The notes under the pieces are model-generated. The model saw only the letters and a list, made by a program, of their open reading frames with translations, did not search any database and had not been told where the DNA came from. This document shows positions 7,698 through 58,738 of a stretch of DNA of 64,000 bases, in pieces. Every line of letters starts with the position of its first letter. Position 1 is the stretch's first letter. Source of the stretch: Shigella phage SP18; sequence record GQ981382. One strand, 5' to 3'. Position numbers and translations under genes: made by a program.

Positions 7698-7954
7698 TAT
7701 GCAACCTTATTGAACATCGCCAGTTGATTAGGTTGTACAACCATAATTTCACGACGACCTTTTGTATTTGACACGTTCAGGTAGATGCCTTTGTTCATGT
7801 CTGTTTCTTTATCATATACCGCAATTTTATTGACAGTAAAGATTTTACCACGAATATTTGCAAATGCACATTCAAACGCTTTAGTCAGACCTGCTTCAGC
7901 AGCTTGAAGAGCGGACATTTCATATTGTTGGCCAATTTCAAAAGAAGTAATCAT
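7697..7954 (-). CDS. hypothetical protein
   Basis: track ORF extends through promoter leader (translating STTDEDNKM); true ATG after conserved leader gives 85 aa. Confidence 0.5.
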   Translation of the reverse strand: MITSFEIGQQYEMSALQAAEAGLTKAFECAFANIRGKIFTVNKIAVYDKETDMNKGIYLNVSNTKGRREIMVVQPNQLAMFNKVA

Positions 7955-7985
7955 TTTGTTGTCCTCATCAGTAGTTGATGAGATG

Positions 7986-8015
7986 ATTATGTCTCTTTCC
8001 ATTGACCTTGTACAC
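7986..8015 (-). promoter_or_regulatory. early promoter (GTGTAC -35, CATAAT -10) with conserved leader ATCAACTACTGATGAGG
   Basis: recurrent cassette; leader ends in GAGGA SD before ATG at 7954. Confidence 0.6.
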
Positions 8016-8021
8016 TACTTT

Positions 8022-8705
8022 TTATCGTTTTTTCGGTAAAGATAACGGGTCTGCATCTTCTTCGGAAGGAACTTCATCCAAACCAAGGGCATAGCGCTGG
8101 GCATACTTCAACATCAAAATATCTTTCGCGCAGTCATGTACCGAATCGTGCGCCACGAATCCATCTAAAGTCCCCTTTGGTAATGGAGTTTCACACATCT
8201 TACGGACGAGTGACAAGGCTTCGATGGCTGTCCTGATATCTCGCTGGTTCCAGAATACAACCGGCTCCAGGCCATAGGTATTCAATTCACGCTCAGGAAT
8301 CCCCTCATTGCGCTGTAGGTCGCGGATAAGGTCAACAAACAACGGGAAGTCAAAAGACATTCCCCGACACCACATAAGGCTTTCGTATTTGTTAATTCCA
8401 TTACCATTCAGATAGTCAATCGCCTGTTGGATACCGGTCAGAGTATCAACATCATGCGCAGAAGGGACCAGGTTAACACGTGCTTCGGTTGATTGTTTTT
8501 TCCACCAACCCATAGTTGTTGTGTCGAACAGCCGCTTACCTTTTTGATATTCAAGGCTGAACTTAATGCGTTTGCCGCGATTAACCAGAGTTTCGAATGA
8601 TTCTACAATAGCAGGGTCAGATTCAAATGTAATCAGGGCCAGGTCAATAACGGCTCCCTTCGAGCCGTTTCCCAGAGTTTCAAAGTCAATAATAGCATCA
8701 ATCAT
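8022..8705 (-). CDS. dexA: exonuclease A (DnaQ-like 3'-5' exonuclease)
   Basis: 227 aa, same length as T4 DexA; DFETLG exo motif. Confidence 0.8.
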   Translation of the reverse strand: MIDAIIDFETLGNGSKGAVIDLALITFESDPAIVESFETLVNRGKRIKFSLEYQKGKRLFDTTTMGWWKKQSTEARVNLVPSAHDVDTLTGIQQAIDYLNGNGINKYESLMWCRGMSFDFPLFVDLIRDLQRNEGIPERELNTYGLEPVVFWNQRDIRTAIEALSLVRKMCETPLPKGTLDGFVAHDSVHDCAKDILMLKYAQRYALGLDEVPSEEDADPLSLPKKR

Positions 8706-11458: not shown

Positions 11459-12073
11459 TCAGTAAGAAAGAACGGAAAGATTCCATAATTTATAGTCTTC
11501 CCATCTATAAATGCTCTCAATAGAGTCCACGCGTAGCGTAGTTCCCGCAGGGAACATCATCTCATCTTCATCATTTACTAATTGCAAGTTTGAAGAACGA
11601 GTTATTTCAGGATATAGTCCATTGAACTCTTCAGGAGGTGCCGCACAAATCATTTTAAAAATCGCTTCCTGATAATCAAATGCGAATGGTGCATCATTAA
11701 TACAGAAAATATTTTTGGTTCCATAGAAGCTAAAGGAAGCAAAGTTACGCGCAACACTGAAATCTTTGGAGAAACTCATTACACGGTCAAACTCAATCGT
11801 AGCACCAACACATCCTACGGTTTCAAGATATGCCAAAGTTTTCTTAGAAATCCCGCGATATAACTTACCAGGCACAGCAGAAGTCAAATTCTTACGAATA
11901 ATTTTGTTCAAAGTTTCCTGGATAGTGTCTGGCTTATTTTCCATGCACTGCCAGAGTGTACTCTGTTCCAACTCAGAGTAAATTTCATCAATTTCAATCT
12001 GGGTATTTTCACGAAAATATTCACATTTAACTGCATTGATGTACTCTGCTAATTGGTGACTTGCGTACAGCAT
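11459..12073 (-). CDS. modA: ADP-ribosyltransferase ModA-like
   Basis: about 204 aa after trimming promoter leader; ART motifs (YRG, SFS, downstream acidic residues); A versus B label is positional. Confidence 0.65.
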   Translation of the reverse strand: MLYASHQLAEYINAVKCEYFRENTQIEIDEIYSELEQSTLWQCMENKPDTIQETLNKIIRKNLTSAVPGKLYRGISKKTLAYLETVGCVGATIEFDRVMSFSKDFSVARNFASFSFYGTKNIFCINDAPFAFDYQEAIFKMICAAPPEEFNGLYPEITRSSNLQLVNDEDEMMFPAGTTLRVDSIESIYRWEDYKLWNLSVLSY

Positions 12074-12104
12074 TTTATTATCCTCATCAGTAGTTGATAG
12101 GAAC

Positions 12105-12134
12105 ATATTAACGTGTCTTATTGCTCTTGTACAC
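12105..12134 (-). promoter_or_regulatory. early promoter with conserved leader, driving modA-like gene
   Basis: GTGTAC -35, TTAATAT -10, leader ATCAACTACTGATGAGG. Confidence 0.5.
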
Positions 12135-12678
12135 AGTCAAGAACATAATAATCACCAACAAATCCAGCATCAACTATCACGAATTTCTGGTCAACTGGAA
12201 CAAACCATTCAAGCTCAGAATCAATCATGTCCATGTATTCTTCACGTCTTAACGTTGCTGCCTGTTCGGAACCAGAAGCTGTATTGAAGAATTCCAGTGG
12301 AACATCAAGCGCGAGCTTACGCATTGCATCATGGTAACAAAAAGCTTTGGTCTGATTCAATCTGACGATAGTCCTAGTCACATATTCCATTGCAGCAAAA
12401 TCCCTGGCAATACCATAGTCTTCTGTAAAGGAGGTTATCCTTCCAAATTCAAAAGGTTTCATTGATTCTTTTGCTTCATCTAACAAATCAATCTCTTGCT
12501 GGGTAACCCCACGATACAAGACTGTATCAGGTACAGATAACCTTGACTTGATGATTGAGTTAACGTTTGAATGCAAGGTCTTATCGACTTTTGATGTGCG
12601 GCATTCAAATAATGAAGCTATCTCCATTTCACTAAATTTTAACTGGTTGGGTTCGGTATCAGATTTGATGATGTTCAT
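12118..12678 (-). CDS. modB: ADP-ribosyltransferase ModB-like
   Basis: 186 aa; ART motifs (LYRGV, SFT); paralog of adjacent modA-like gene. Confidence 0.65.
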   Translation of the reverse strand: MNIIKSDTEPNQLKFSEMEIASLFECRTSKVDKTLHSNVNSIIKSRLSVPDTVLYRGVTQQEIDLLDEAKESMKPFEFGRITSFTEDYGIARDFAAMEYVTRTIVRLNQTKAFCYHDAMRKLALDVPLEFFNTASGSEQAATLRREEYMDMIDSELEWFVPVDQKFVIVDAGFVGDYYVLDCVQEQ

Positions 12679-14514: not shown

Positions 14515-14567
14515 AGTATTCTCCTCTGTAATTGAAATAATTATACCGCTTCTATTAAAAGCAAAAA

Positions 14568-14586
14568 GGGAACCCGAAGGTTCCCT
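14568..14586 (-). terminator. CUUCGG hairpin terminator downstream of soc
   Basis: GGGAACC-cgaa-GGTTCCC with flanking A/T runs. Confidence 0.6.
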
Positions 14587-14590
14587 ATAA

Positions 14591-14821
14591 TTAAACTCCT
14601 GGGGTAGGCGCAAACATCGCCGCGTTCTTAGTTCGCCAATCGGCTGCATCAGTCACTACAGTAGTATAGGCTGCAACGGCCGAAGGAAAAGTCTGATAAT
14701 GAGCATCCGCAATACGATGCTCGTTCGAATAGATTTCAAACGGAACTGATACTTCAACACCTTTAACTTCTTTACCTTCACCAGCTGGATGCGTAAAGGT
14801 TTTGATATTAACACCACCCAT
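14591..14821 (-). CDS. soc: small outer capsid protein Soc, copy 1 (76 aa)
   Basis: MGGVNIKTFTHPAGEGKEVKG...HYQTFPS; Soc-family, RB69-like by memory. Confidence 0.8.
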   Translation of the reverse strand: MGGVNIKTFTHPAGEGKEVKGVEVSVPFEIYSNEHRIADAHYQTFPSAVAAYTTVVTDAADWRTKNAAMFAPTPGV

Positions 14822-15056
14822 GATTAACTCCTGGGGTAGGCGCAAACATCGCCGCGTTCTTAGTTCGCCAATCGGCTGCATCAGTCACTACAGTAGTATA
14901 GGCTGCAACGGCCGAAGGAAAAGTCTGATAATGAGCATCCGCAATACGATGCTCGTTCGAATAGATTTCAAACGGAACTGATACTTCAACACCTTTAACT
15001 TCTTTACCTTCACCAGCTGGATGCGTAAAGGTTTTGATATTAACGAAACCACCCAT
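14808..15056 (-). CDS. soc: small outer capsid protein Soc, copy 2 (82 aa, one extra Phe codon, C-terminus reads through the repeat junction)
   Basis: near-identical to copy 1 at DNA level; ends ...PTPGVNHGWC because the junction lacks the copy-1 stop context. Confidence 0.7.
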   Translation of the reverse strand: MGGFVNIKTFTHPAGEGKEVKGVEVSVPFEIYSNEHRIADAHYQTFPSAVAAYTTVVTDAADWRTKNAAMFAPTPGVNHGWC

Positions 15057-15097
15057 GATTAACTCCTTTGTTGTTTAATTACAGGTGTATTTATAAC

Positions 15098-15616
15098 TTA
15101 ATAACCACGGTCCTGACGAGCAAAGTTCTCAGCATTTTTCAGGTAATACAATTTAAAGATTTCTTCTGCAGATAGACCAAGACCCTGGAACATATTCAGA
15201 ACAAAGTGCAGGATATCAATCATCTCGAATTTAATTTCGAGCTGGTCTTCAGGAGATAAATTATTAATCAGGGTTTGCTGCATTTCGCCATGTTGTGCTT
15301 TCCATGGTTTCCATACGGCCGAGGCAGCTTTCTCGCCATTGGACATACCGCCGAGAGAAGTCAGAAGTTCACGGAATTCGTCGTCAACATAATCTTTCTG
15401 GTTGCGAAGCCATGCAACAACATCGCCCGCGGTTGCCAATTCATCTGGATGTGCGTTATATTCTGGTTTTTCTGTAGCCAGACGAACCTGCAAAGATTTC
15501 TGCATATCAAGCATAATCTGCAGAGGGTCATCATTGCCTTTTAGGACATCATTATACGCATCTTGAGCTTTATCAACACCAGCAATCAGTTGAGAACACT
15601 CGTTAAAATGAGCCAT
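15098..15616 (-). CDS. 56: dCTP pyrophosphatase / dUTPase gp56
   Basis: 172 aa from MAHFNECSQL, resembling T4 gp56 N-terminus and length. Confidence 0.8.
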   Translation of the reverse strand: MAHFNECSQLIAGVDKAQDAYNDVLKGNDDPLQIMLDMQKSLQVRLATEKPEYNAHPDELATAGDVVAWLRNQKDYVDDEFRELLTSLGGMSNGEKAASAVWKPWKAQHGEMQQTLINNLSPEDQLEIKFEMIDILHFVLNMFQGLGLSAEEIFKLYYLKNAENFARQDRGY

Positions 15617-17446: not shown

Positions 17447-17642
17447 ATTGTTCCCTTCTTTTAATCAATTGACGATGTGCCTTTTTAAGTTTACGAATCT
17501 GACGTTTAGTCGGTCGCGCAACGTAAGCTTGTGTAGTTACTCGTCCAAAAACACCATACTTAGGCGAAGGAGTATCAATAAAGACTTCCCACTGGCAAGA
17601 GTAACTATATATTGCTTTAGAGAATTGGGTCAAAACAAACAT
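17421..17642 (-). CDS. hypothetical basic protein
   Basis: 73 aa ORF. Confidence 0.4.
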   Translation of the reverse strand: MFVLTQFSKAIYSYSCQWEVFIDTPSPKYGVFGRVTTQAYVARPTKRQIRKLKKAHRQLIKRREQYECNVYGL

Positions 17643-17643
17643 A

Positions 17644-18003
17644 TTAACCTCGCTTCATGAAGGCATTAAAAATCTGGTCATCAATATCAGTAGGCGGTTC
17701 TTGAGCTTTGACCCAAGCCCCTTCCAGAATGTCATTTGCTTCAGTAGATATCATGACCCCAATTTCAGGGTTTCCGGTTATCCATACTGCACAATCGCGG
17801 ACATTCTTTTTATCAAATGGATAACCACGATTATCTTCACAAGGCCCATTCATTGTCATAAATGAACGAGCCTTTATGATAACATCATCTTTAACGATAA
17901 TATAACCAATCGCCTGATTATAACGAGGCTCACGAAATTCATAGTGAGCATTACCATTATTATTGCTCACCAGTTCAAAATTCAGAAAATTATAATAACT
18001 CAT
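17644..18003 (-). CDS. hypothetical protein with C-terminal DDQIFNAFMKRG tail
   Basis: 119 aa; shares about 40-bp 3' coding segment with the adjacent upstream gene. Confidence 0.5.
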   Translation of the reverse strand: MSYYNFLNFELVSNNNGNAHYEFREPRYNQAIGYIIVKDDVIIKARSFMTMNGPCEDNRGYPFDKKNVRDCAVWITGNPEIGVMISTEANDILEGAWVKAQEPPTDIDDQIFNAFMKRG

Positions 18004-18004
18004 A

Positions 18005-18445
18005 TTAATCTCGCTTCATGAAGGCATTAAAAATTTGGTCGTCAACTGAATATACAGGGGTTTCCAGAAGTTTCAAAAGACTGTTTTTAATGTACTTACC
18101 CGGGATACCCATATTAACAATACTGTCATTCAATTCATTATCAGGGTTGATGTCTTTAAATTCAAACCCATCAAATTCAACCTTGTCAGGAATACCATCA
18201 GCGAAAAAATAAACCAATTGGTGCATTGTATTGCGCGAAAATAATTTAGACTTGACCGCAATAAGTTCTTGCCAATGGTTTAATTCTTTGTTAAGAAGTT
18301 TATGAGCAAACGTAATTCTATTATCACTATCAACAAGAAAATAACCCAGGTATTGAATGGGTTCGTCGCTCCAAAACATCCTGTATGCTTGTGCATTTTG
18401 ATTTTTACAACGAAGTTTTTTGATAACTAGAGTTCTGTTAATCAT
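18005..18445 (-). CDS. hypothetical protein with C-terminal DDQIFNAFMKRD tail
   Basis: start trimmed to MINRTLVIKK to abut sp; about 146 aa. Confidence 0.5.
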   Translation of the reverse strand: MINRTLVIKKLRCKNQNAQAYRMFWSDEPIQYLGYFLVDSDNRITFAHKLLNKELNHWQELIAVKSKLFSRNTMHQLVYFFADGIPDKVEFDGFEFKDINPDNELNDSIVNMGIPGKYIKNSLLKLLETPVYSVDDQIFNAFMKRD

Positions 18446-18446
18446 T

Positions 18447-18740
18447 TTATTCACCTGTAACCCATTGAACAATCTTGCTGTTGTCAAATGAAGCATCGCA
18501 ATACAGAACATAGTTATACTGCATAACATCACCAGAAGTCAATTGGTCAGATACTTCTTTAACCATATCAGGACGGTCACGTTTAGTAATATTCATGATG
18601 TCAGCATAAATCTGATGTTCAACATCAGCCTGGTCAGCAGTCATGGACCACTCGCAAAGGTCTTTATCAAGTCCAGCAGTAACTGGAGCTGTGCCACATG
18701 ATGCTACGGTAAGAATTGCTGCGATTAATAACTTTTTCAT
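18447..18740 (-). CDS. sp: Spackle periplasmic protein (superinfection exclusion; inhibitor of gp5 lysozyme)
   Basis: 97 aa with signal peptide; DKDLCEWSMTADQ and MQYNYVLYCD motifs as in T4 Sp. Confidence 0.85.
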   Translation of the reverse strand: MKKLLIAAILTVASCGTAPVTAGLDKDLCEWSMTADQADVEHQIYADIMNITKRDRPDMVKEVSDQLTSGDVMQYNYVLYCDASFDNSKIVQWVTGE

Positions 18741-19770: not shown

Positions 19771-20018
19771 TATTTTAATTCATTAATTAAATGAAAATCT
19801 TGTGCATTGAAAGTAATGAAAAAATAATCATTCCCTTCAACTGAAGCATGACAGGCAACACTACACCAGCGCCTTGCTCTGTTCAAGGAGCAATCCAAAA
19901 TTTTAAAAGGCTTCAGACCAACAATGGCAGCTGTTCTTTTATTATGCTCACAAATATCAGCATACTTTTGGAGAGCTTCTTCAGATTTGAACTGGTAATG
20001 CACATTAACTAATAACAT
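19770..20018 (-). CDS. hypothetical Cys-rich protein
   Basis: 82 aa single-gene unit bounded by promoter-terminator cassettes on both sides. Confidence 0.5.
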   Translation of the reverse strand: MLLVNVHYQFKSEEALQKYADICEHNKRTAAIVGLKPFKILDCSLNRARRWCSVACHASVEGNDYFFITFNAQDFHLINELK

Positions 20019-20049
20019 TTTATTATCCTCATCAGTAGTTGATGGGATA

Positions 20050-20079
20050 ATAGTACACCCTTTTTATGGTGATGTAAAC
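20050..20079 (-). promoter_or_regulatory. early promoter (GTTTAC -35, TACTAT -10); about 55 bp near-identical to the cassette at 51.8 kb
   Basis: GGTTTACatcaccataaaaagggtgTACTATtatcccatcaactactgatgagg. Confidence 0.55.
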
Positions 20080-20092
20080 CTCTAAAATGAAA

Positions 20093-20106
20093 AAGACCCG
20101 AAGGTC
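20093..20106 (-). terminator. CUUCGG hairpin terminator downstream of gene 41
   Basis: AGACC-cgaa-GGTCT with flanking A/T runs. Confidence 0.55.
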
Positions 20107-24026: not shown

Positions 24027-24095
24027 TTTAATATCCTTAAGTTATTCATCAGTTGATGGGGTAATCATACGGCAATCCATTGCCGTTGTAAACAC

Positions 24096-26810
24096 TTAAA
24101 AGTCAAACATATCAAAAAGAGTTGCTTTCTTTTCGTAATCAACCTTAGCTGCTTCAGAGAAACCTGTTAATGGCTTAACAAAAGTCTTCTGGAACAGTGT
24201 GTTGTAGTCCATCCACTGCAAGACTTGGTCACGAATTTCAATCGGGAGTTCAATCCCTGACGGCCATGCAATCACAGTTTCACCAAACGGGTTGCCGACT
24301 TTAAGAGGAAGTACATACACCTTTTCCCCTTCCATGATTTGCGGAACAGTCTTCAGACCTTTAGTTGCACGCATATATGCAAGCACACCTTTGATATGAG
24401 CCGGACACTTAAATCCAGGGAAACCGCCTTCATTATATTTCTGGATGTTGTTAACCGATGATACACCTGCGATGGTCATGTAGTTAAGCTCATTAAATTC
24501 CTTATTGAATTCCTTGAAGTATGTCTGCAGAGATTCTTCACCTTCTTGCAGCATACGGCGGATACATTCTTTCAGAGCTTTCTGACATGCCTTTGGAGTA
24601 CTCGACTTTTGAGTTTCCAGACCCATGATTTTCAGTTTCGGAACCGCATATCGTGTGCCTTCCATATCGTACACGTTCAGCGCATAACGCTTCTTCGCCG
24701 TCCAGAATCCACCCACACCTTTAGAACCCAGCGGAGGACATGCAATCGCCTCACGGTCCATAAACATAAGGTGCTGTTTGTTGTTCATGTATTCAGCCAG
24801 CTCACGGAAAGCTTTATCGATTGCCGGTTCCAGACGGTCTTTCGCAAACTTGTCCATGAAGTCAACCAGGTGGTTTGTATCACGGAATTTAGATTCGCCA
24901 CCAACCTTTTTAATCAGGTTATCGCACTGGATATAAATGGAGTCAGTATCGCCATAGAACACATAAGTTTCACCGCTTGTCCCACAAACACTATCGAAGT
25001 ATTCGTTAACTTTACGCTCAATCCACTGCAATGCAAGTTGTCCGAAAGATGTAATCGCGGTTGCATTTCGCAGGTCAAAGTAACGGAACCAGATATTACC
25101 CAGAGCGCCATAACAACTGTTGATAAGCAGTTTACGGTTAATCTGTGCGGTCATGCCTGCAACTTCTTCCATCTGCGCTTTGTACAACATACCATTCAGA
25201 ACTGTTTGATTCAGACCATGTAAGGTTGTTTTCATATTGTCATCAAAGTCATGACGATAATCAACTTCAGGCTCGGTTGTACCAGTTCCTGGATTACGCA
25301 GAGCTTCCTTAATCAGTTCACCATTACGTTGAGCCGCAAGCATATAGCCTTTGTGCTCTTTACGCTGATTAAACACCTTGGTGACTTCTGTCGGAATAAT
25401 ACCCGCAACATCTTTAAAATACATCATACCATTTGGAGCACAACTAAATGTATCAGATGGACGGTCAGCAGTTCCTGCGATGTATTCGTACATCGGCGCT
25501 GGTGCAAATGACCCGGCAATCGTTTCTGGACTGATGTTAATCTGTCGGATGATGCTCGGATACAGAGATGTTAAGTCACAGCTCATAACGTATTTGTATG
25601 CGTTCGGAATCGGTTCCTTAACAAATGCACCAGGGAACGATTGGCGAACATGTGATTTGGTTTCCGGAATGACTTTGTTTTGAGTCTTCAGGCTGTTAAA
25701 GATAATCGCATCCCAAGTTTTGATTGGGCTGAATACAGACTGAATCTGCATTTTTGCATAATAACCCATTGACTGGCTCAGGTTAATAAACTGCCGCTTA
25801 CGGTCAATCTGCACAACACGATAAACGTCGATGATGTTATAAGAAATATACCGCTGGTGATTTGATTCACGCAGTTTAGAAATCGGGCCATCATACGGGA
25901 GTTTACCAACACCCAGTTCAGATTCCGCAACATAATCCAACGAATAAGACGGTTGGTTTGTGAAGCTGAACTTTTTATACAGGTCCAGATAATCCAGAAC
26001 AGAGATACCCAGAATCTGAATGATTTCTTGTTCTTCACCAAAGCCGTTGTTAATGACTTTAACTTTTGTACGACGATGTGGGCTCAGACGTTTTGCCGTA
26101 GCTTCACCAAATACATTTTTAAGGCGGTTGTAGATATATGGAATATCAAACTTCTCGATGTTCCAACCAGTTAACATAACCGGAGTTTTCTCGTTCCAGA
26201 ATACCAAATACTGCTGGAGCATTTCTTCTTCTGAATCGAAAGCCATATAAACAATTTTTTCCAGGATTTCTTCCGGGACTTCATCACCACCATCTTCCTG
26301 CAGCTTAGCAGCAATATCAATAGACCATTGCTCCACAGTGGCGTATGGTGAGCCCAAAAGGTCAAAGACATAGAATTTATCGTCTACCGAATCATAGTGC
26401 GTCAGGGCATCAATAGGGTGACGTGCTTCAGACGGTTCAGGAAACCCATCAGGAGATGTCACCTCGATATCGAAGTTAGCAACACGGATTTTACTTGAAT
26501 CATATTTGATTTCGTGTGGGTAACGGTCGGACAAGTATGCGAGTTTAAAGTCGTCCATACCCATAGCTTCGAGACCCATGTCATTCATTCGCTTCATCCA
26601 CTGGGATGCATCACGCATGGAATCGAATTCTTTTTTCACACAACCTTTATTATAGATGTCTGTATACTTTGCAGCTTGGTCTTCGCGGGCGTGCATAAAC
26701 AAGCATGGAGCATAAGGGATTTCACGAACACGTTCATGACCATTCTTGTCAATATATCGTTCGAGCAGATTGTCACCGATTTGTTCGATAGTTAAATAAA
26801 ATTCTTGCAT
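24096..26810 (-). CDS. 43: DNA polymerase gp43 (family B, 3'-5' exonuclease plus polymerase)
   Basis: 904 aa; exo motifs FDIEV and YNIIDV, polymerase motifs DLTSLYPSII, KILINSCYG, YGDTDS; RB69-like by memory. Confidence 0.95.
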   Translation of the reverse strand: MQEFYLTIEQIGDNLLERYIDKNGHERVREIPYAPCLFMHAREDQAAKYTDIYNKGCVKKEFDSMRDASQWMKRMNDMGLEAMGMDDFKLAYLSDRYPHEIKYDSSKIRVANFDIEVTSPDGFPEPSEARHPIDALTHYDSVDDKFYVFDLLGSPYATVEQWSIDIAAKLQEDGGDEVPEEILEKIVYMAFDSEEEMLQQYLVFWNEKTPVMLTGWNIEKFDIPYIYNRLKNVFGEATAKRLSPHRRTKVKVINNGFGEEQEIIQILGISVLDYLDLYKKFSFTNQPSYSLDYVAESELGVGKLPYDGPISKLRESNHQRYISYNIIDVYRVVQIDRKRQFINLSQSMGYYAKMQIQSVFSPIKTWDAIIFNSLKTQNKVIPETKSHVRQSFPGAFVKEPIPNAYKYVMSCDLTSLYPSIIRQINISPETIAGSFAPAPMYEYIAGTADRPSDTFSCAPNGMMYFKDVAGIIPTEVTKVFNQRKEHKGYMLAAQRNGELIKEALRNPGTGTTEPEVDYRHDFDDNMKTTLHGLNQTVLNGMLYKAQMEEVAGMTAQINRKLLINSCYGALGNIWFRYFDLRNATAITSFGQLALQWIERKVNEYFDSVCGTSGETYVFYGDTDSIYIQCDNLIKKVGGESKFRDTNHLVDFMDKFAKDRLEPAIDKAFRELAEYMNNKQHLMFMDREAIACPPLGSKGVGGFWTAKKRYALNVYDMEGTRYAVPKLKIMGLETQKSSTPKACQKALKECIRRMLQEGEESLQTYFKEFNKEFNELNYMTIAGVSSVNNIQKYNEGGFPGFKCPAHIKGVLAYMRATKGLKTVPQIMEGEKVYVLPLKVGNPFGETVIAWPSGIELPIEIRDQVLQWMDYNTLFQKTFVKPLTGFSEAAKVDYEKKATLFDMFDF

Positions 26811-37331: not shown

Positions 37332-37510
37332 AATTTAGGTCCTTTTGCAACTGTATTGAACAAGCTACGGTCACACACCATCAACGGAGCATCAGGCCAT
37401 TTCAAAGGACGATACCATACATCTTGGTCCGTCACTTTGGTTACTTGCACAGGATAGCCATTTACTGAATAATACTGGTCGGCTTTAATTTCTTTATCTT
37501 CAATAACCAT
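37328..37510 (-). CDS. small hypothetical protein
   Basis: about 60 aa after trimming promoter leader (STTDEENKM). Confidence 0.45.
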   Translation of the reverse strand: MVIEDKEIKADQYYSVNGYPVQVTKVTDQDVWYRPLKWPDAPLMVCDRSLFNTVAKGPKL

Positions 37511-37541
37511 TTTGTTTTCCTCATCAGTAGTTGATGGGATA

Positions 37542-37571
37542 ATGATACACCGTTCAAAGGGGCTTGTACAC
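37542..37571 (-). promoter_or_regulatory. early promoter (GTGTAC -35, TATCAT -10) with ATCAACTACTGATGAGG leader
   Basis: recurrent cassette immediately downstream of nrdH. Confidence 0.5.
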
Positions 37572-37577
37572 CCCTTT

Positions 37578-37895
37578 TTAATCTTCAATTAAGTCCTGGT
37601 CATACCCCAGGGATATCAGTTTTGTTTTAAAGGCAGGAATATTTGTCATTTTTTCATCATTGACAAAAATCACTGGGTAACGAATGTTAAGGGTAGGATA
37701 TCCAGCACGCTTAGCCAAAGACACGATTAATGGCCTGTCATAAGCGATTTCAGAGCCTTGTTTGTTAAGGACTGAATAGAATGTATAAGGAAGGTTTAAG
37801 GAGCCCAGAAGGCTCCTGACGTGCATACAACCTGGGCATCGACCGACTTCTTCGGGGATACCATAGATTTCAATCTTAGTCGAGTTTTGGTCCAC
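37578..37895 (-). CDS. nrdH: glutaredoxin-like protein NrdH
   Basis: 105 aa; CPGC redox motif; adjacent to nrdG/nrdD as in T4. Confidence 0.7.
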   Translation of the reverse strand: MDQNSTKIEIYGIPEEVGRCPGCMHVRSLLGSLNLPYTFYSVLNKQGSEIAYDRPLIVSLAKRAGYPTLNIRYPVIFVNDEKMTNIPAFKTKLISLGYDQDLIED

Positions 37896-38175
37896 AGGAA
37901 ATCACTCCTTGGTAGTTCCAGGTTTTAATAACTTCTTCATCGCTGGCAGTTGCGTACGGGACATAAACCTGAATAAGGAAACCCGTGTCATCGAAAGAGA
38001 AATAAACCGTCGGTTTGATTCCATGAATCTCAGACAATGCATAGATGTCTTTAAGGTCTTCTTCCTTACCGACAAAGAATTCCGGGTCCAGGTCACAGTC
38101 GTGGAAGTACCATTCATCACCGAACTTGTCCCATGCGGTCCAATTAGTAGCTACATATTCTTCAAAACGTTTCAT
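37876..38175 (-). CDS. hypothetical acidic protein
   Basis: 99 aa ORF. Confidence 0.5.
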   Translation of the reverse strand: MKRFEEYVATNWTAWDKFGDEWYFHDCDLDPEFFVGKEEDLKDIYALSEIHGIKPTVYFSFDDTGFLIQVYVPYATASDEEVIKTWNYQGVISCGPKLD

Positions 38176-38411
38176 TCTTTCACCTTCAGCATTTTTGCAA
38201 TGGTACTATGAATAGTCTGGATTCTTTTGTTGAATTCAGAGCTTTCGAGGCCAGGATTGGTGCTTAACCAACCGATAATAACAAACAGCAAACCAAACGG
38301 GATAGCCAGAATAAGCAGACAAACGATGAACAACACAAGCGTTATGTTTGCCAGAATATCTGCTGTAGCATTACGAAATTTATTCATATTTACCCTTAAT
38401 TGATTAACCAA
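38172..38411 (-). CDS. small membrane protein
   Basis: 79 aa with one strongly hydrophobic segment. Confidence 0.5.
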   Translation of the reverse strand: MVNQLRVNMNKFRNATADILANITLVLFIVCLLILAIPFGLLFVIIGWLSTNPGLESSEFNKRIQTIHSTIAKMLKVKE

Positions 38412-38501
38412 GCATTGATAAACACTAAACTATACTGCGAATAAAATTCTGGACCAAAACGAAAAATCATATCATTTATAGTATCCATAATGTAATTCAA
38501 T

Positions 38502-38972
38502 TTAATCATGTTTCCACACCCCATCGGTATTTGACCAAAGTCGCTGATTATCTGACCCTCGCCACAGTTTTTTGGTCGGAAGATTTTTCTCATACTTCCC
38601 ATCAATAATAACATCAACATATTTAAGCATTTCTAGTTGTTTAATATCTTCAAACTTATATCCCGTCCACATCCAAATGCTTTTATTGGGATAAAGATTT
38701 TTAATAGTTTGAACCACAGAGTGAATAACATCTCGGTTATCAGGATAGAGAGGGTCTCCTCCGGTTATAGTTAATCCTTCTATATAATCATTATTCAAAC
38801 ATTCAATTAATTGTTCTAGTGTTTTACCAGTAAATGGAACACCATTTCTAGCATTCCATGTTGATTTATTATAACACCCTTCGCATTTATGCAAACAACC
38901 TGTAACGAAAAGAACGACCCTACAACCAGGGCCATTCACAAAATCACAAGGATAAATTCTATCATAATTCAT
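38502..38972 (-). CDS. nrdG: anaerobic ribonucleotide reductase activating protein NrdG (radical SAM)
   Basis: 156 aa as T4 NrdG; CxxxCxxC radical-SAM cluster motif (CLHKCEGC). Confidence 0.85.
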   Translation of the reverse strand: MNYDRIYPCDFVNGPGCRVVLFVTGCLHKCEGCYNKSTWNARNGVPFTGKTLEQLIECLNNDYIEGLTITGGDPLYPDNRDVIHSVVQTIKNLYPNKSIWMWTGYKFEDIKQLEMLKYVDVIIDGKYEKNLPTKKLWRGSDNQRLWSNTDGVWKHD

Positions 38973-40786
38973 TGATGTTTAACCCTATGCATGATTTCTT
39001 TATTTTTGCCGAGATTAAATCCACGTTCGTTCGGATTCCCCAAATAGCCGCATGTTCTTCTTATTGTGTTCATCTTTTTAGGGTCAGTTTCTCCACAAAT
39101 AGAACAAACAAATCCGTTTTCAGTAGGAGTCATTTCATGGGTACTTCCACACGTAAAACATTTATCTACTGGCATATTAACACCAAAATAATCTAAATGT
39201 TGTGCAGCATAATCCCATACAGCCTCAAGACCTTTTAAGTTATTTTTCATATCAGGAAGTTCAACATAAGAAATGTGACCACCTGTTGCAATGAAATGAT
39301 ACGGTGCTTCGCGAGAAATCTTTTCAAACGGAGTAATATTTTCTTCTACTGAAACGTGGAAACTATTAGTGTACCAGCCTTTATCAGTAACATCTTTTAC
39401 ACTTCCATATTTTTCGGTATCAAGTTTACAGAAGCGATAGCACAGGTTTTCAGCAGGAGTAGAATACAAACTAAAAGCAAATCCGGTTCTTTCAGTCCAC
39501 TGCTTAAGACGAGCATTCATTTTAGTCAAAATTTCTTGTCCAATATCACGACCGACAAGAATATTCAATTCGTGAATACCAATGTATCCTAAGGACACTG
39601 AACTTCTACCGTTTTTAAATAACTCAATTATATCGTCATCGGGTTTAAGACGAACCCCGAATGCACCTTCTTGATAAAGAATAGGAGCAACAGTCGCTTT
39701 AACTCCTTTTAAGGAACTAATTCTACACATCAAAGCTTCAAAACATAAATCCATTCGCTCATTGAACAATTCAGTAAATTTCTGTTCATTGAACTGTGTT
39801 CCAATATAAGAATCTAATGCAATGCGAGGAAGATTCAGTGTTACAACACCAAGATTATTACGTCCATCAAGAATTTCATTACCAGTCGAATCTTTCCATA
39901 CGCCCAAGAAACTACGACAACCCATTGGAGAAACAGGAATAGATGAACCAGTGATAGCTTTGTTATTCTTAGCTGAAATGATATCAGGATACATTCTTTT
40001 GCTTGCACACTCTAAAGCAAGCTGCTTAATATCATAGTTTGGGTCGTCTTTATAAAGATTAACACCTTCTTCAACGAACATAACAAGTTTAGGGAAAATA
40101 GGAGTTATCCCATCACGACCAAGACCTTTAATACGATTTTTCAGAATTGCTTTCTGAATCATTCGTTCGGTCCAGTCAGTTCCGGTACCAAATGTAATTG
40201 TCACAAAAGGAGTCTGACCATTTGAGCTAAAGAGAGTATTTACTTCATATTCATAAGCTTGGAATGCATCGTATACGTCTTTTTCTGTTTTAGATTGGGC
40301 ATAATTCAACGCATCAGTGATTTGCCATTTTTCCGCGTCCTCAATATGTTTCGCATAGGTACGTTTAACATAAGGAGAAAGTACTTTATCTACATTCGCA
40401 AAAGTCGTTCCGCCATATTGATGGGAAGCAACCTGCGCAGTAATTTGTGCCATAATTGCAGTAGCAACACTGATTGATTTAGGAGTTTCAATCTGTGCAT
40501 TACCGAGTTTAAATCCGTTCTCAAGCATTCCTTTTAAATCTACTAAACAGCAATTAGTAAATGGAAGAGCAGGGGAATAATCAATATCATGGAAATGAAT
40601 AATTCCGCTTTCATGTGCTTTCATAATAAAAGACGCGACCATATTTTTGGCAATATGTTTAGATACAATACCAGCCATAAGGTCACGTTGAGTTGGAAAA
40701 ACACGAGAATCTTTATTAGCATTCTCGTTTAAAAGGTCTTTATTAGTTTTATGAATCAATCCTTCAATTTCGTTTTCAATTGTCAT
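38969..40786 (-). CDS. nrdD: anaerobic ribonucleoside-triphosphate reductase NrdD, uninterrupted
   Basis: 605 aa as T4 NrdD; C-terminal glycyl-radical region and CxxC zinc motifs; no intron. Confidence 0.9.
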   Translation of the reverse strand: MTIENEIEGLIHKTNKDLLNENANKDSRVFPTQRDLMAGIVSKHIAKNMVASFIMKAHESGIIHFHDIDYSPALPFTNCCLVDLKGMLENGFKLGNAQIETPKSISVATAIMAQITAQVASHQYGGTTFANVDKVLSPYVKRTYAKHIEDAEKWQITDALNYAQSKTEKDVYDAFQAYEYEVNTLFSSNGQTPFVTITFGTGTDWTERMIQKAILKNRIKGLGRDGITPIFPKLVMFVEEGVNLYKDDPNYDIKQLALECASKRMYPDIISAKNNKAITGSSIPVSPMGCRSFLGVWKDSTGNEILDGRNNLGVVTLNLPRIALDSYIGTQFNEQKFTELFNERMDLCFEALMCRISSLKGVKATVAPILYQEGAFGVRLKPDDDIIELFKNGRSSVSLGYIGIHELNILVGRDIGQEILTKMNARLKQWTERTGFAFSLYSTPAENLCYRFCKLDTEKYGSVKDVTDKGWYTNSFHVSVEENITPFEKISREAPYHFIATGGHISYVELPDMKNNLKGLEAVWDYAAQHLDYFGVNMPVDKCFTCGSTHEMTPTENGFVCSICGETDPKKMNTIRRTCGYLGNPNERGFNLGKNKEIMHRVKHQ

Positions 40787-43346: not shown

Positions 43347-43604
43347 TTATTCCTTAATTCCTAATACTTGTTTGAAGGTCTCAGTATAATCGGAGTATTG
43401 ACCGGTTTGTTCTTTATGTTTGACCATAATACCATAAACTTCTGAACGCATATTATTATATGAACGAGTTAAAGCAGATTTCAATACTGAATAACTATCC
43501 GGAAGTTTACCGTGTTCTTTATAATAGGCCAGAGTTAATTCACGGACCGCCTTATCAGCAGTCTCAAGATATTCTTTACGCTTTGCCATTTTCTTCTCGC
43601 TCAA
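43347..43604 (-). CDS. hypothetical protein
   Basis: 85 aa ORF. Confidence 0.5.
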
Positions 43605-43869
43605 ATTTGTGTTTGCAATGTCTGCATTTATAACGAAGATTACTAGTCTGCCAATGGACTAACTGGACCTGTTCAGTTCCACATTCTGGACAGTTTGGAA
43701 CGCTCTTAGAAGCACGTTCCCGGCGGCGAACCATAGCCATTACCATATCCCAATCAGGAACCTGACTATAATCATCAGTCCAGTTTATAAGACCTTTATT
43801 AACCCCCGCTGCGGGGGTCCATTCTGGAAATGCAGTTTCTGCAATATCTTCAGCTAAACGTTGTTTCAT
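43576..43869 (-). CDS. hypothetical zinc-ribbon protein
   Basis: 97 aa; CPECG...CRHCKHK Cys4 motif. Confidence 0.5.
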
Positions 43870-44855
43870 TTCAGCAGCTCCAGAGCCTGTTCCAGTTTAT
43901 CCAGACGATTAGTTGATTCTTCCCAAAGTCGCTTGGCTTTGGTATAGTCTTCAGTTGCCTTTTTATTAACAGCAAGAGCTTCATTATACGCCGTTTCCAG
44001 GGCAACAATTTCAGGCGCTTTTTGTTTCACCGGCTCGTTGTTCAGATTATCAATCAGGTCTTCAAGGGTGGTTTCTTGTGGTGCATTCATAATTTCCTCA
44101 CTTTTCTTTTTATAAATTTCTGCAACAGTTGGTTGTTTTGCACATTTAACTTCGTGTAATGTCACCACAATTTTCCAACCTTTCCAACCATGAGCACTGG
44201 TGATAGGGTCTACTTTAATTTTTTCAACAGTGCGCATATAGTTAAGGGCACACTGCATCTGTGAAGTAAGCGTGCTCGCAGCATCAAGATACTTTTTGAC
44301 ATTTTCTGGAGTAGCTACTGGAGTAAAGAACTCATGCTTAACTGTAATAATTACCTGGTTTTCCCCAGACTCTTTAACCTTGACCATGTGCTCAGCCAAA
44401 TGGGAGATAGTGCGATAATCACCATCCATCAATTTTGTCGCTGATTTTATGATAGACATTTTGTTATCTCTGAATTCACGCGCCCAGCGATGGGCGAATT
44501 CAGAAACAGTATAGCCTTGTTTATCAAGGTAGTATTTTTCAACGTCACCAAACCAATGATAGCCAATTGTACCTTTGCCGCGGTTGGATTCAACACCAAA
44601 CTTATGAAGAAGGTCTTTATTAACCAGGTATGACAGGACTCGGGAACCTTTAAAAGTTTTCTTGATATCATCGTTACCTGCACGACTCGCAATAGTTGCA
44701 ATGTCTTTCTTGAAGCGACCAGATGCAACAATCGTCGAGTCAATCTGATTTAACCAGAAATTGATAATCGAAAGGATAGACAATTCACCTGTTAATGGTT
44801 TTACTTTTGCGTCGATAGTGGTGTTAAAGGCCTGGATATATTCGTTACGTGTCAT
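43866..44855 (-). CDS. hypothetical protein (329 aa)
   Basis: long ORF with coiled-coil C-terminus; no recognised motif. Confidence 0.55.
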   Translation of the reverse strand: MTRNEYIQAFNTTIDAKVKPLTGELSILSIINFWLNQIDSTIVASGRFKKDIATIASRAGNDDIKKTFKGSRVLSYLVNKDLLHKFGVESNRGKGTIGYHWFGDVEKYYLDKQGYTVSEFAHRWAREFRDNKMSIIKSATKLMDGDYRTISHLAEHMVKVKESGENQVIITVKHEFFTPVATPENVKKYLDAASTLTSQMQCALNYMRTVEKIKVDPITSAHGWKGWKIVVTLHEVKCAKQPTVAEIYKKKSEEIMNAPQETTLEDLIDNLNNEPVKQKAPEIVALETAYNEALAVNKKATEDYTKAKRLWEESTNRLDKLEQALELLK

Positions 44856-44913
44856 AGTGTTCTCCTCATAAAGTAGGAATTCATTATACTCCCTCCATCC
44901 TTGGAAGTAAACA

Positions 44914-45291
44914 TTATTTTAATGCTAAAATCGCCGCCTGCAATTTATTGCGTTGTGTTTCCATGTTCTTGATGCGATTCAGAACATCCTGGATACCCTT
45001 TTTCTCATCTTCAATCAGACCATTTAAGCGGTTGACTGATTCCTGGATAGCATCAGCATGATGTTTCTCAATAGGCTTCATTGATGGGTTAAAGATTCCA
45101 AGAGAGCTAGCCGGTTTGACTTTCCATTGGTACATATTTTTAACGTCCAGCGGTGAAATAGGCTGTGTTTTATATTGACCTGCAAATGCTGGACCATATG
45201 ATGCGGATGATGCGATAGGGGTACGTTCTGTCATTTCTGGTTCCTTTTTCTCCTGATAAGGAGCGTAAGACAAAAGATATTCTTTAGTCAA
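44914..45291 (-). CDS. hypothetical coiled-coil protein
   Basis: 125 aa ORF. Confidence 0.5.
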   Translation of the reverse strand: MTKEYLLSYAPYQEKKEPEMTERTPIASSASYGPAFAGQYKTQPISPLDVKNMYQWKVKPASSLGIFNPSMKPIEKHHADAIQESVNRLNGLIEDEKKGIQDVLNRIKNMETQRNKLQAAILALK

Positions 45292-45305
45292 TTTAATATC
45301 AATGG

Positions 45306-45818
45306 TTATAGTTTTAAGGAATTTTCCGTTTGGTGGATATAATTTGTATCTTCTTCAAACGTGTATGCTTCAACAGCATGGCGCATATAAAACAGCGCAA
45401 TACCCATAACCTCTTTAAAGGTATCACAAAGAGCAACATCACCCTTGGTGGTTGGCTTGAACTTAATCTGCACACCATCATTCTTGATATTGATAATCAA
45501 GTTACTGGAGGTAAAATTATAGTTCTTGATGTTAACTGGAGCTTTACGAATACGAAGTCCAGCTGCCAGGATTTCCTTGATACTCTTACGAACTGTGACA
45601 CCAAACAAAAACGCAGGGCGGCGGCAGTAATCATTCAGAGAGTTAATTCTTACAATACGTTGACCATACCCCTGGGTGGCAGAACCAGATTTGATTTTGC
45701 CAAAGTTAACCAGAGAATTCATCGCAATAAGACGGGTTGCACGTCCTTCACGCTGTTCAAATCGAGAATATTCTTTACGTGTTTTAATGTTCATATCAGA
45801 GTCCAAATAATTTTTCAT
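45306..45818 (-). CDS. hypothetical protein
   Basis: 170 aa ORF. Confidence 0.5.
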   Translation of the reverse strand: MKNYLDSDMNIKTRKEYSRFEQREGRATRLIAMNSLVNFGKIKSGSATQGYGQRIVRINSLNDYCRRPAFLFGVTVRKSIKEILAAGLRIRKAPVNIKNYNFTSSNLIINIKNDGVQIKFKPTTKGDVALCDTFKEVMGIALFYMRHAVEAYTFEEDTNYIHQTENSLKL

Positions 45819-47447: not shown

Positions 47448-47483
47448 TTTATTCTCCAGTATTTGGTAACTCAGTATGGGAAC

Positions 47484-47513
47484 ATTATACGTTTATCCCC
47501 ATACTATGTACAC
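47484..47513 (-). promoter_or_regulatory. early promoter (GTGTAC -35, TATAAT -10); near-identical copy at 48.06 kb
   Basis: GTGTACatagtatggggataaacgTATAATgttcccatactgagttacc. Confidence 0.6.
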
Positions 47514-48019: not shown

Positions 48020-48060
48020 TTTATTCTCCGTTTGTTTATTTGGTAACTCAGTATGGGAAC

Positions 48061-48090
48061 ATTATACGTCTATCCCCATACTATGTACAC
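48061..48090 (-). promoter_or_regulatory. early promoter (GTGTAC -35, TATAAT -10), paralogous cassette
   Basis: GTGTACatagtatggggatagacgTATAATgttcccatactgagttacc. Confidence 0.6.
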
Positions 48091-51777: not shown

Positions 51778-51805
51778 TGTGTTCTCCTCAGTAGTTGATG
51801 GGATA

Positions 51806-51835
51806 ATAGTACACCCTTTTTATGGTGTTGTAAAC
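51806..51835 (-). promoter_or_regulatory. early promoter (GTTTAC -35, TACTAT -10), near-identical to cassette at 20.05 kb
   Basis: GGTTTACaacaccataaaaagggtgTACTATtatcccatcaactactgaggag. Confidence 0.55.
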
Positions 51836-51878
51836 CCCCTAAATGAAAAAAGGTCCACCCGAAGGCAGACCTTTTGAA

Positions 51879-57730: not shown

Positions 57731-58030
57731 TTAGAAAGAACCAGAGCCTTTAATTGTGTTCTGGCGACCTTTATTTTCTAATTCAGAATGGTCAATTTCA
57801 TATGCTTGTGCTACACCAAAAGCCTTTTTAACTTTAGCTAAAGAACCTTTAGATGTAACAATATTAAAAGTATTACCTTTGGTAAAATCAACCAAATCCA
57901 CTTGTACACCTTGTTTACCGAGGCTTGCGACAATAGCATCAACATATTGTTGGTCTAAATTGCCCTGGACTCCAATTTGGAATGCTTTAGGAGCTTTAGC
58001 TTCTGTGATAAATTCTTGATAAGTTTTCAT
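57731..58030 (-). CDS. internal protein (IP) with capsid-targeting sequence, cargo of unknown function
   Basis: 99 aa; N-terminus MKTYQEFITEA matches the T4 IP capsid-targeting/cleavage motif; own early promoter. Confidence 0.7.
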   Translation of the reverse strand: MKTYQEFITEAKAPKAFQIGVQGNLDQQYVDAIVASLGKQGVQVDLVDFTKGNTFNIVTSKGSLAKVKKAFGVAQAYEIDHSELENKGRQNTIKGSGSF

Positions 58031-58055
58031 TTATTCTCTCCAAGTTGATGGGATA

Positions 58056-58084
58056 ATTATGCACTATCCCATCAAAAAGTAAAC
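58056..58084 (-). promoter_or_regulatory. early promoter (GTTTAC -35, CATAAT -10) for the first IP gene
   Basis: GTTTACtttttgatgggatagtgCATAATtatcccatcaacttggagagaataa-ATG. Confidence 0.55.
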
Positions 58085-58086
58085 AG

Positions 58087-58350
58087 TTATGCTTTACCGC
58101 CAGAAACAATACCAAAGGTCTCAAAGTCCCATTCAATATCGTCAACATCAACTTTCTTACCAGCAACCACGAATGCGATTTCGCGACGTTTTGCATAGGT
58201 GACAATTTCTTTACCGTCACCACCAAAGAAAGAATAACCATTGCGCTTCATGGTGCCAAAGTCTTCAGCATCACCAGCAAACGCGCGGACTTTAAAGGAA
58301 CCGGCAGGAGCTTTAGTAGATTCAGTAATAAATTCTTGATAAGTTTTCAT
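58087..58350 (-). CDS. internal protein (IP) with capsid-targeting sequence, cargo of unknown function
   Basis: 87 aa; N-terminus MKTYQEFITES; 13 nt downstream of the preceding IP gene. Confidence 0.7.
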   Translation of the reverse strand: MKTYQEFITESTKAPAGSFKVRAFAGDAEDFGTMKRNGYSFFGGDGKEIVTYAKRREIAFVVAGKKVDVDDIEWDFETFGIVSGGKA

Positions 58351-58363
58351 AATGTCTCTTTAA

Positions 58364-58678
58364 TTACTCTTTAGGGAAATCGCGCAAAAACGCATCATAA
58401 AGTTTATTACCAATGCGACGGAATGCTTTTGCCGCATGAACGTTATCCGGATTTGCAATTTTAATTTGCATTACATGACTACCGGCCCATGATTTGGCTT
58501 CATCATAATAGCCTTTAATTTCTTTAATAGTCTTACGTTTTCCGCCAGGACCATCAACAGTAATTTTCCACGAACCGGTGCTTGTTTCACTTGGTGGGGT
58601 TAATTGTTCAATCCAGACATAACCGCCTTCAACACGTTTTTGGGTAGATTCAGTAATAAATTCTTGATAAGTTTTCAT
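58364..58678 (-). CDS. internal protein (IP) with capsid-targeting sequence, cargo of unknown function
   Basis: about 104 aa from MKTYQEFITEST; track ORF extends through promoter leader. Confidence 0.7.
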   Translation of the reverse strand: MKTYQEFITESTQKRVEGGYVWIEQLTPPSETSTGSWKITVDGPGGKRKTIKEIKGYYDEAKSWAGSHVMQIKIANPDNVHAAKAFRRIGNKLYDAFLRDFPKE

Positions 58679-58708
58679 TTTATATTCCATTGTTTGGTTG
58701 ATAAAATC

Positions 58709-58738
58709 ATTATACAACCTTTTTAGTTAAGCGTACAC
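58709..58738 (-). promoter_or_regulatory. early promoter for the IP operon; -35 GTGTAC lies inside the denV C-terminal codons
   Basis: GTGTACgcttaactaaaaaggttgTATAATgattttatcaacc. Confidence 0.5.

Follow-up and report, generated by a model that had tools for sequence, protein, structure and literature searches.

Two almost identical soc genes lie head-to-tail in the genome of Shigella phage SP18, and they raise the question of whether the pair is a genuine gene duplication and, if it is, how and when it arose and what became of the two copies. We examined it within a window of 64,000 nucleotides, the whole stretch of DNA analysed, which a DNA search placed in the genus Gaprivervirus at ~97% identity to phages 212, P896, CJ20 and DK-13; the window coordinates are the genome coordinates of VR20. 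The soc pair is flanked on the same strand by mrh.2 below and by gene 56 (dCTPase; 15098-15616) above, the product of which matches dUTPase_2 in Pfam, and the order mrh.2 - soc - gene 56 is as in relatives. Each of the six relatives that we fetched has one soc. We refer to the upstream and downstream copies of SP18 as soc-A and soc-B, and their features are collected in Table 1.

Table 1. Features of the soc-A/soc-B region in SP18, with the corresponding intergenic loci of relatives.
Feature	Coordinates	Strand	Basis or remark
T4-type late promoter box TATAAATA	15088..15095	-	position kept in six relatives aligned
Whole tandem repeat	14594..15067	-	repeat search, Tandem Repeats Finder, direct reading
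Unit A, 235 nt	14833-15067	-	repeat search
Unit B, 232 nt	14601-14832	-	repeat search
AGGAGTT copy 1: soc-A Shine-Dalgarno region, left repeat boundary	15061..15067	-	direct reading, alignment
Novel junction, single AGGAGTT: Gly76-Val77 codons of soc-A and Shine-Dalgarno region of soc-B	14826..14832	-	
Third copy of the 7-nt microhomology AGGAGTT	14594-14600	-	direct reading
soc-A, 82 aa, MGGFVNIKTF...PTPGVNHGWC	14808..15056	-	ORF translation; deposited ADO19371.1
Phe4 codon TTC of soc-A	15045..15047	-	alignment; missing in soc-B between 14812 and 14813
soc-A/soc-B overlap, 14 nt, ATGGGTGGTGTTAA	14808..14821	-	soc-B start and soc-A stop, in different frames
soc-B, 76 aa, MGGVNIKTF...PTPGV and stop	14591..14821	-	ORF translation; deposited ADO19370.1
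Intrinsic terminator after soc-B: stem 14567-14586, then TTTTTGCTTTT	14557..14586	-	conserved in relatives
soc / gene 56 intergenic loci in relatives	L001 1167-1448; L003 1183-1607; L008 14718-14999		

Direct reading and a repeat search agreed on a direct tandem repeat whose units of 235 and 232 nt stand head-to-tail, with no foreign sequence at the junction. Each unit is exactly one cistron, from ribosome-binding site to stop. Two blocks are 100% identical between the units, one of 219 nt (14594-14812 and 14826-15044, spacing 232) and one of 20 nt (14813-14832 and 15048-15067, spacing 235), so that the units differ solely by the 3 nt at 15045-15047, present in unit A and absent between 14812 and 14813 in unit B. 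Tandem Repeats Finder placed the repeat at 14594-15067, with a period of 232, 2.0 copies, 98% matches, 1% indels and a score of 923, and together with the repeat search it found the soc pair to be the sole sizeable tandem repeat within the 64-kb window. The sequence-only reading of this locus had described two direct repeats of ~232 and 235 bp, each with a complete soc, an upstream copy that reads through the junction to end in ...PTPGVNHGWC, and a terminator hairpin after the downstream copy only; the repeat search and ORFs bore out the first, ORF translation the second, and the hairpin at 14567-14586 (-) the third.

Other repeated sequences in the window are of different kinds. At 57731-58717 (-), three adjacent ORFs (99, 87 and ~104 aa) all begin MKTYQEFITE(A/S) and then diverge completely; the 43 nt that their 5' ends have in common show 81-84% identity and recur every 320-328 nt, and the three are either old tandem paralogues or carriers of a shared N-terminal module. 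The adjacent ORFs at 17644-18003 and 18005-18532 (-) have a common C-terminal end (DDQIFNAFMKRG / DDQIFNAFMKRD), with 45-nt 3' segments (17640-17684 and 18001-18045) that are 93% identical. Such older, diverged tandem paralogues indicate that events of this type sometimes persist. Dispersed repeats of 50-77 nt occur at 7948-8024, 12067-12149, 20012-20094, 24042-24108, 37504-37586 and 51784-51850, and a further two, at 47460-47513 and 48037-48090, are 98% identical; on the minus strand these dispersed repeats look like T4-type early promoter and leader cassettes (GTTTACA/GTGTACA ... TATTATCCCATCAACTACTGATGAGGA).

Both soc products matched the Soc family. Pfam PF16855 scored the two copies at 64.3 and 62.1 bits (cut-off 27), PHROG 1715 matched both (E = 1e-38 and 3e-37), and RB69 Soc (PDB 3IG9) aligned at 93% identity (E = 5e-45), matches that identify both as Soc small outer capsid proteins. 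An exact-sequence look-up finds them deposited as such, ADO19370.1 (76 aa) and ADO19371.1 (82 aa), each on one contig and in SP18 only. Neither product is wild type: soc-A encodes the ancestral Soc (MGGF...PTPGV) with a read-through tail, NHGWC, and soc-B (ATG 14819-14821, stop 14591-14593, -) encodes the wild type minus Phe4. The C-terminal peptide is thus NAAMFAPTPGVNHGWC in soc-A as against NAAMFAPTPGV in soc-B, and the tail brings the only Cys of the soc-A protein. The 96-aa ORF listed at 14591-14881 arises mechanically, by extending soc-B upstream through an alternative frame of the first copy.

The two departures from wild type affect different parts of the protein. Position 4 of Soc is Phe or Tyr in all homologues aligned (29/29), and the N-terminal strand motif (F/Y)VNIKTF is intact in soc-A and lacks its aromatic residue in soc-B. 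In an AlphaFold model (mean pLDDT 78), residue 4 opens strand 1 (residues 4-9), and residues 80-82 of the soc-A tail are disordered (pLDDT < 50). Soc C-termini naturally vary in length in the homologue alignment, and both Soc termini are surface-exposed and accept large fusions without loss of capsid binding (PMC3708895); by analogy with these variable, fusion-tolerant termini, the NHGWC tail of soc-A is therefore probably harmless. Another small tandem duplication, this one inside soc, was seen in P0035, a 97-aa Soc homologue of an unrelated lineage on a 173,535-bp ENA contig, which has a 15-aa in-frame internal tandem duplication (SDAHRIAGAHYQIFP twice) when aligned with P0044 (82 aa).

We aligned both SP18 copies with five relatives for age and polarity. 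The sequence-only reading had noted a single in-frame 3-nt difference between the copies, which stands, and had taken it for an insertion in the upstream copy, which is reversed here. Because all relatives aligned read ATGGGTGGTTTCGTT (MGGF) at the soc 5' end and residue 4 is aromatic in every homologue, the alignment assigns the indel as a deletion of the Phe4 codon in soc-B and not as an insertion in soc-A. The proposal that the event was very recent fits the substitutions: relative to the nearest relatives, DCP80 and 212, the two copies share all seven (7/7), and there are none between the copies. Since seven substitutions are shared and none separates the copies, the alignment indicates that the duplication is far younger than the split from the closest genomes known (~3% divergence), or that the copies are being homogenised.

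Several local causes for the changes were considered and set aside. Error-prone synthesis would cluster substitutions at the junction, and the seven differences from DCP80 and 212 are spread along the gene. A slippage origin of the TTC deletion would call for a flanking direct repeat, and there is none to explain it; templating by a quasipalindrome found no support on manual inspection, in which the right arm of the junction hairpin was not an exact complement of the left. Restoring TTC changed the predicted folding energy of the 111-nt context from -34.6 to -32.1 kcal/mol, a gain from the deletion of only ~2.5 kcal/mol that is too small to make a case for selection.

The boundaries of the repeat point to how it arose. 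The 7-nt AGGAGTT occurs once at the junction and once at each outer boundary, with flanks that differ on both sides. On the soc strand the left boundary reads ...ACAAAGGAGTT-AATCATGGGTGGTTTCGTT..., the right boundary ...CCCCAGGAGTT-TAATTATAGGG..., and the junction ...CCCCAGGAGTT-AATCATGGGTGGT, continued after the 3-nt gap by GTT...; the sequence diagnostic of the soc-soc junction is ...CCCCAGGAGTTAATCATGGGTGGTGTT.... At breakpoints drawn at random 232-235 nt apart in the SP18 genome, microhomology of at least 7 nt has a probability of P = 0.0008-0.0012. Relatives have the same Shine-Dalgarno side; because their soc 3' ends read CCAGTAGTT (Pro-Val-Val) or GATATTGTT, the microhomology is lineage-specific. 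Over the last 85 nt of soc, exactly two bases differ between SP18 and ten relatives (97.6% identity); against the relatives aligned they are ACG>GCG (T71A) and GTA>GGA (V76G), two C-terminal substitutions unique to SP18 Soc. The second of these, a T>G change, renders the end of soc identical to its own ribosome-binding site.

From these observations we consider it probable, though well short of assured, that the tandem duplication in SP18 is genuine and very recent, that microhomology mediated it, and that it is near-neutral and transient. In the SP18 lineage a T>G change (GTA>GGA, Val76Gly) would have turned the last soc codons into AGGAGTT, which is also the Shine-Dalgarno region of the gene, 235 nt further upstream. 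Through these two 7-nt sites, on sister or concatemeric genomes, illegitimate recombination or a template switch would then have duplicated a segment of exactly one ribosome-binding site and one coding sequence. The product would be a bicistronic late operon consisting of late promoter, soc-A, soc-B and terminator. At the junction soc-A would have lost its stop and gained five codons (NHGWC) before a stop 11 nt inside soc-B, and soc-B would have kept its Shine-Dalgarno sequence, ATG and original stop. Loss of the Phe4 codon from soc-B may have come afterwards or in the same event, and would fit relaxed constraint on a redundant copy.

The net effect would probably be near-neutral, with somewhat more Soc and two slightly altered isoforms. 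T4-type phages recombine at very high rates, and identical repeats of 219 nt should readily collapse or expand; the array should thus be unstable, its copy number falling or rising by recombination between the repeats. The simplest explanation for its fixation in the stock that was sequenced is a bottleneck at plaque purification.

Tandem duplication has precedents in T4, in the rII region and, reportedly, in the Hp17 amplifications of genes 16-18 ascribed to Wu, Wu and Black in 1991. The closest comparison is the T4 dmd-tifA amplification (Srikant et al. 2022, PMC9391042), with which the soc pair shares head-to-tail repeats in a T-even genome. The T4 segmental amplifications have boundaries at 'short (typically 6-10 bp) regions of microhomology', direct repeats to be compared with the 7 bp of the soc pair, and leave one microhomology copy between neighbouring repeats (PMC9391042). 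The anatomy of the soc junction matches this T4-type microhomology-mediated duplication. In both cases ancestors or close relatives are single-copy and the repeat is expected to be unstable. However, the T4 amplifications arose under laboratory selection, span 0.5 kb to several kb, often reach ~10 copies and are accompanied by compensating deletions (PMC9391042), whereas the soc pair has two 232-nt units in a natural isolate under no known selection, and its addition of 0.14% to the genome is too little to need compensation. The K3L 'accordions' of poxvirus (Elde et al. 2012, as cited in PMC9391042) are a case of transient tandem copy gain and share the concept of dosage and extra mutational targets after which one copy changes; they differ in virus and recombination machinery.

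Single-copy Soc of RB69 and T4 (PDB 3IG9/3IGE, 5VF3), a capsid clamp, belongs to the same family, PF16855, and is encoded at the same genomic position. Unlike RB69 and T4, SP18 has two soc cistrons, one with the NHGWC tail and the other without the strand-1 aromatic residue. T4 soc likewise has a TATAAATA late-promoter box and an inhibitory leader hairpin, and the terminator after soc is conserved in Gaprivervirus and Dhakavirus relatives.

One late promoter and one terminator flank the soc-A/soc-B pair. The pair has a single TATAAATA box, placed beyond the repeat in the interval that separates the gene 56 stop from the first soc; because the function of this box is known from T4, it would by analogy act as a late promoter. 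The terminator has an 8-bp stem with five G-C pairs and a TTCG loop, followed by TTTTTGCTTTT, and a hairpin search found no terminator-like hairpin between soc-A and soc-B. In each copy GGAG sits 7 nt ahead of the ATG. Folding predictions differed with the transcript: in the read-through context the soc-A AUG was paired (CACCUGU with AUGGGUG; unpaired probability 0.03-0.06), and in a transcript starting just past the late promoter it was free (unpaired probability 0.68-0.97). T4 soc has an inhibitory structure at its translation initiation region in longer transcripts (PMC3014915), and the predicted soc-A leader structure matches it. By these predictions soc-A is probably translated from the late transcript, as the single gene normally is.

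Translation of soc-B would probably take a different route. In the predicted fold CAUGGGUGGUGU pairs with the 3' end of soc-A (GCGCCUACCCCAGG), leaving the Shine-Dalgarno sequence and AUG of soc-B partly sequestered, in a start hairpin of -20.3 kcal/mol (75-nt fold) that is no strong outlier against shuffled sequences (z = -1.55). The soc-A stop (14808-14810) is 11 nt downstream of the soc-B ATG, and the geometry of the 14-nt overlap suits translational coupling. Because ribosomes on soc-A would traverse the hairpin and stop 11 nt past the soc-B AUG, coupling to soc-A is the likeliest route and probably accounts for most soc-B translation.

Upstream of the pair, the site between soc and gene 56 is variable among Gapriverviruses. 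SP18 has no extra ORF in 15057-15097. An extra ORF is absent also from YenP8 and VR20, the VR20 gap being ~180 bp with nothing annotated; a 93-aa ORF (MARLNKRQLKKARKK...) stands there in UPEC01, 212 and DCP80, and two ORFs in VR25. These additional ORFs were considered as old soc paralogues and rejected, since neither the 93-aa ORF nor the VR25 pair has any Soc similarity and tblastn found one soc per locus. One of the two VR25 ORFs bears the annotation 'similar to T4 Soc' but is no homologue of Soc.

We searched for tandem soc outside SP18 and found none among 409 phage records, IMG/VR, JGI metagenomes and GTDB. In a phage collection that does not include the SP18 record itself (NC_014595 / GQ981382), tblastn with Soc gave 410 places in the 409 records, the extra one in DCP80, and a 161-nt junction query matched 67 phage records, always as two pieces from opposite ends of a single soc. 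A degenerate pattern, defined as a soc 3' end followed by a soc start within 8-38 nt, recovers the SP18 window and returned nothing in IMG/VR, JGI metagenomes or GTDB genomes; the exact SP18 junction was likewise not found in IMG/VR. The single-copy ancestral soc 3' end (...PTPGV) was also missing, in a pattern search, from IMG/VR and the metagenomes, as was the ancestral 77-aa Soc protein from a collection of 15 billion proteins. No independent contigs encoding the 82-, 76- or 96-aa ORFs are on record, and we found no discussion of the SP18 soc duplication in the accessible literature.

Two records were examined as further tandem-soc genomes and rejected. DCP80 (PQ671644.1), a 'complete genome' of 140,978 bp, has its second soc place together with rIIA at both 38143-40377 and 43541-45775 in inverted orientation; the arrangement is not tandem, and the aberrant 141-kb record resembles a misassembly that contains a large duplication in inverted orientation. 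Escherichia phage 04086 (OR842557.1), in which the query spanned 1111 bp, has a single soc; the record is poorly annotated, with soc unannotated and gene 56 split into two CDSs, which suggests frameshift errors in the deposited sequence.

Three other explanations of the pair were weighed. The best of them, which we nevertheless judge unlikely, accepts the duplication as real and has it kept by selection, for a higher Soc dose or for co-assembly of two isoforms, the pair then being newborn paralogues at the outset of their divergence. The advantage could lie in fuller occupancy of capsid sites, or in stability at alkaline pH or heat; as isoforms, soc-A could present its Trp/Cys tail on the capsid surface, or Phe4-less soc-B could have altered binding. 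Selection would account for the repeat being the consensus sequence although identical repeats of 219 nt should vanish quickly, but a bottleneck at plaque purification would suffice to fix a neutral duplication. That neither copy is wild type, so that each might be needed, has to be set against the zero substitutions between the copies and the dispensability of Soc in the laboratory (PMC3708895). Isometric T4 heads are not Soc-saturated (occupancy 0.4-0.6; PMC9958956), SP18 Soc has the two unique C-terminal substitutions T71A and V76G, and the window has other tandem paralogues that are older and have diverged; yet the soc pair is unique among 409 Soc-type genomes and absent from the metagenome and IMG/VR scans, with no sign of persistence or recurrence. 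A bolder form of this idea, in which the pair is a selected, heritable two-isoform Soc, a newborn paralogue pair whose coupled soc-A and soc-B co-assemble and alter capsid stability or surface chemistry, seems to us distinctly improbable; in this form, too, the event would have been enabled by a point mutation that made the last codons mimic the Shine-Dalgarno sequence of their own gene.

The second explanation is an assembly or finishing artefact, in which, for instance, a contig end would have been joined wrongly, a read would have been chimeric, or a polymorphism would have been resolved in series, the true soc being single. In circularly permuted phage genomes the re-joining of contig ends is known to produce artefactual tandem duplications, the relatives are all single-copy, and the pair rests on a single data source, with neither isoform in any independent assembly. 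The assembly is moreover an old one: SP18 was sequenced by 454 pyrosequencing in ~2010 (Kim et al. 2010, as summarised in PMC3694061), and the reads then obtained may have been too short to cover the 474-nt repeat from end to end. The novel junction, however, must have been in the reads and is nonexistent in a single-copy genome; the 7 nt shared are far too short for an assembler join, and blunt overlaps show at least 7 nt of microhomology only ~0.1% of the time. An assembly overlap would have blunt, arbitrary boundaries and identical copies, and the soc repeat has neither: its copies differ by a 3-nt deletion that lies 13 nt from the junction, and so on the same reads, and that is not a homopolymer-length error. 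Elsewhere in the assembly frameshifting indels are not in excess and there is no further duplication; a comparison with phage 212 (94-98% identity) gave 30 small, mostly compensated indels in 38 kb. The sequence-only reading had left the choice between a real event and an artefact open, and the microhomology, the non-identical copies and the clean assembly now make a blunt overlap unlikely; for the artefact in all its forms we see only a small chance.

The weakest explanation, a larger accordion-like amplification of at least three soc units, on the model of T4 tifA or Hp17, collapsed to two by the assembler, draws on the many copies that T4 amplifications commonly reach (PMC9391042) and on inner units that would be of the identical, TTC-deleted junction type and so collapse in a short-read assembly, but it is most improbable given a genome size of 170,605 bp that is typical for the genus, no known selective pressure for high Soc dosage, and a sequence that requires no more than two units.

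For the preferred reading, a recent and near-neutral duplication through microhomology, the mechanism and the Soc family are already known, and both CDSs were already deposited as soc in SP18. What is new is the proposed origin through the V76G Shine-Dalgarno mimic, the polarity of the indel, and the recognition that neither copy is wild type. The pair brings no new mechanism or system, and with Soc dispensable in the laboratory its significance is modest. It does carry a warning for annotation, as both genes are plainly 'small outer capsid protein' in SP18, the name-giving reference of Gaprivervirus sp18. If real, it is a clean natural example of gene-copy creation in T-even phages, in which a single point mutation would have created a 7-nt microhomology through which one functional cistron was duplicated exactly, and it shows the state straight after duplication, with a tail on one copy and a conserved residue lost from the other.
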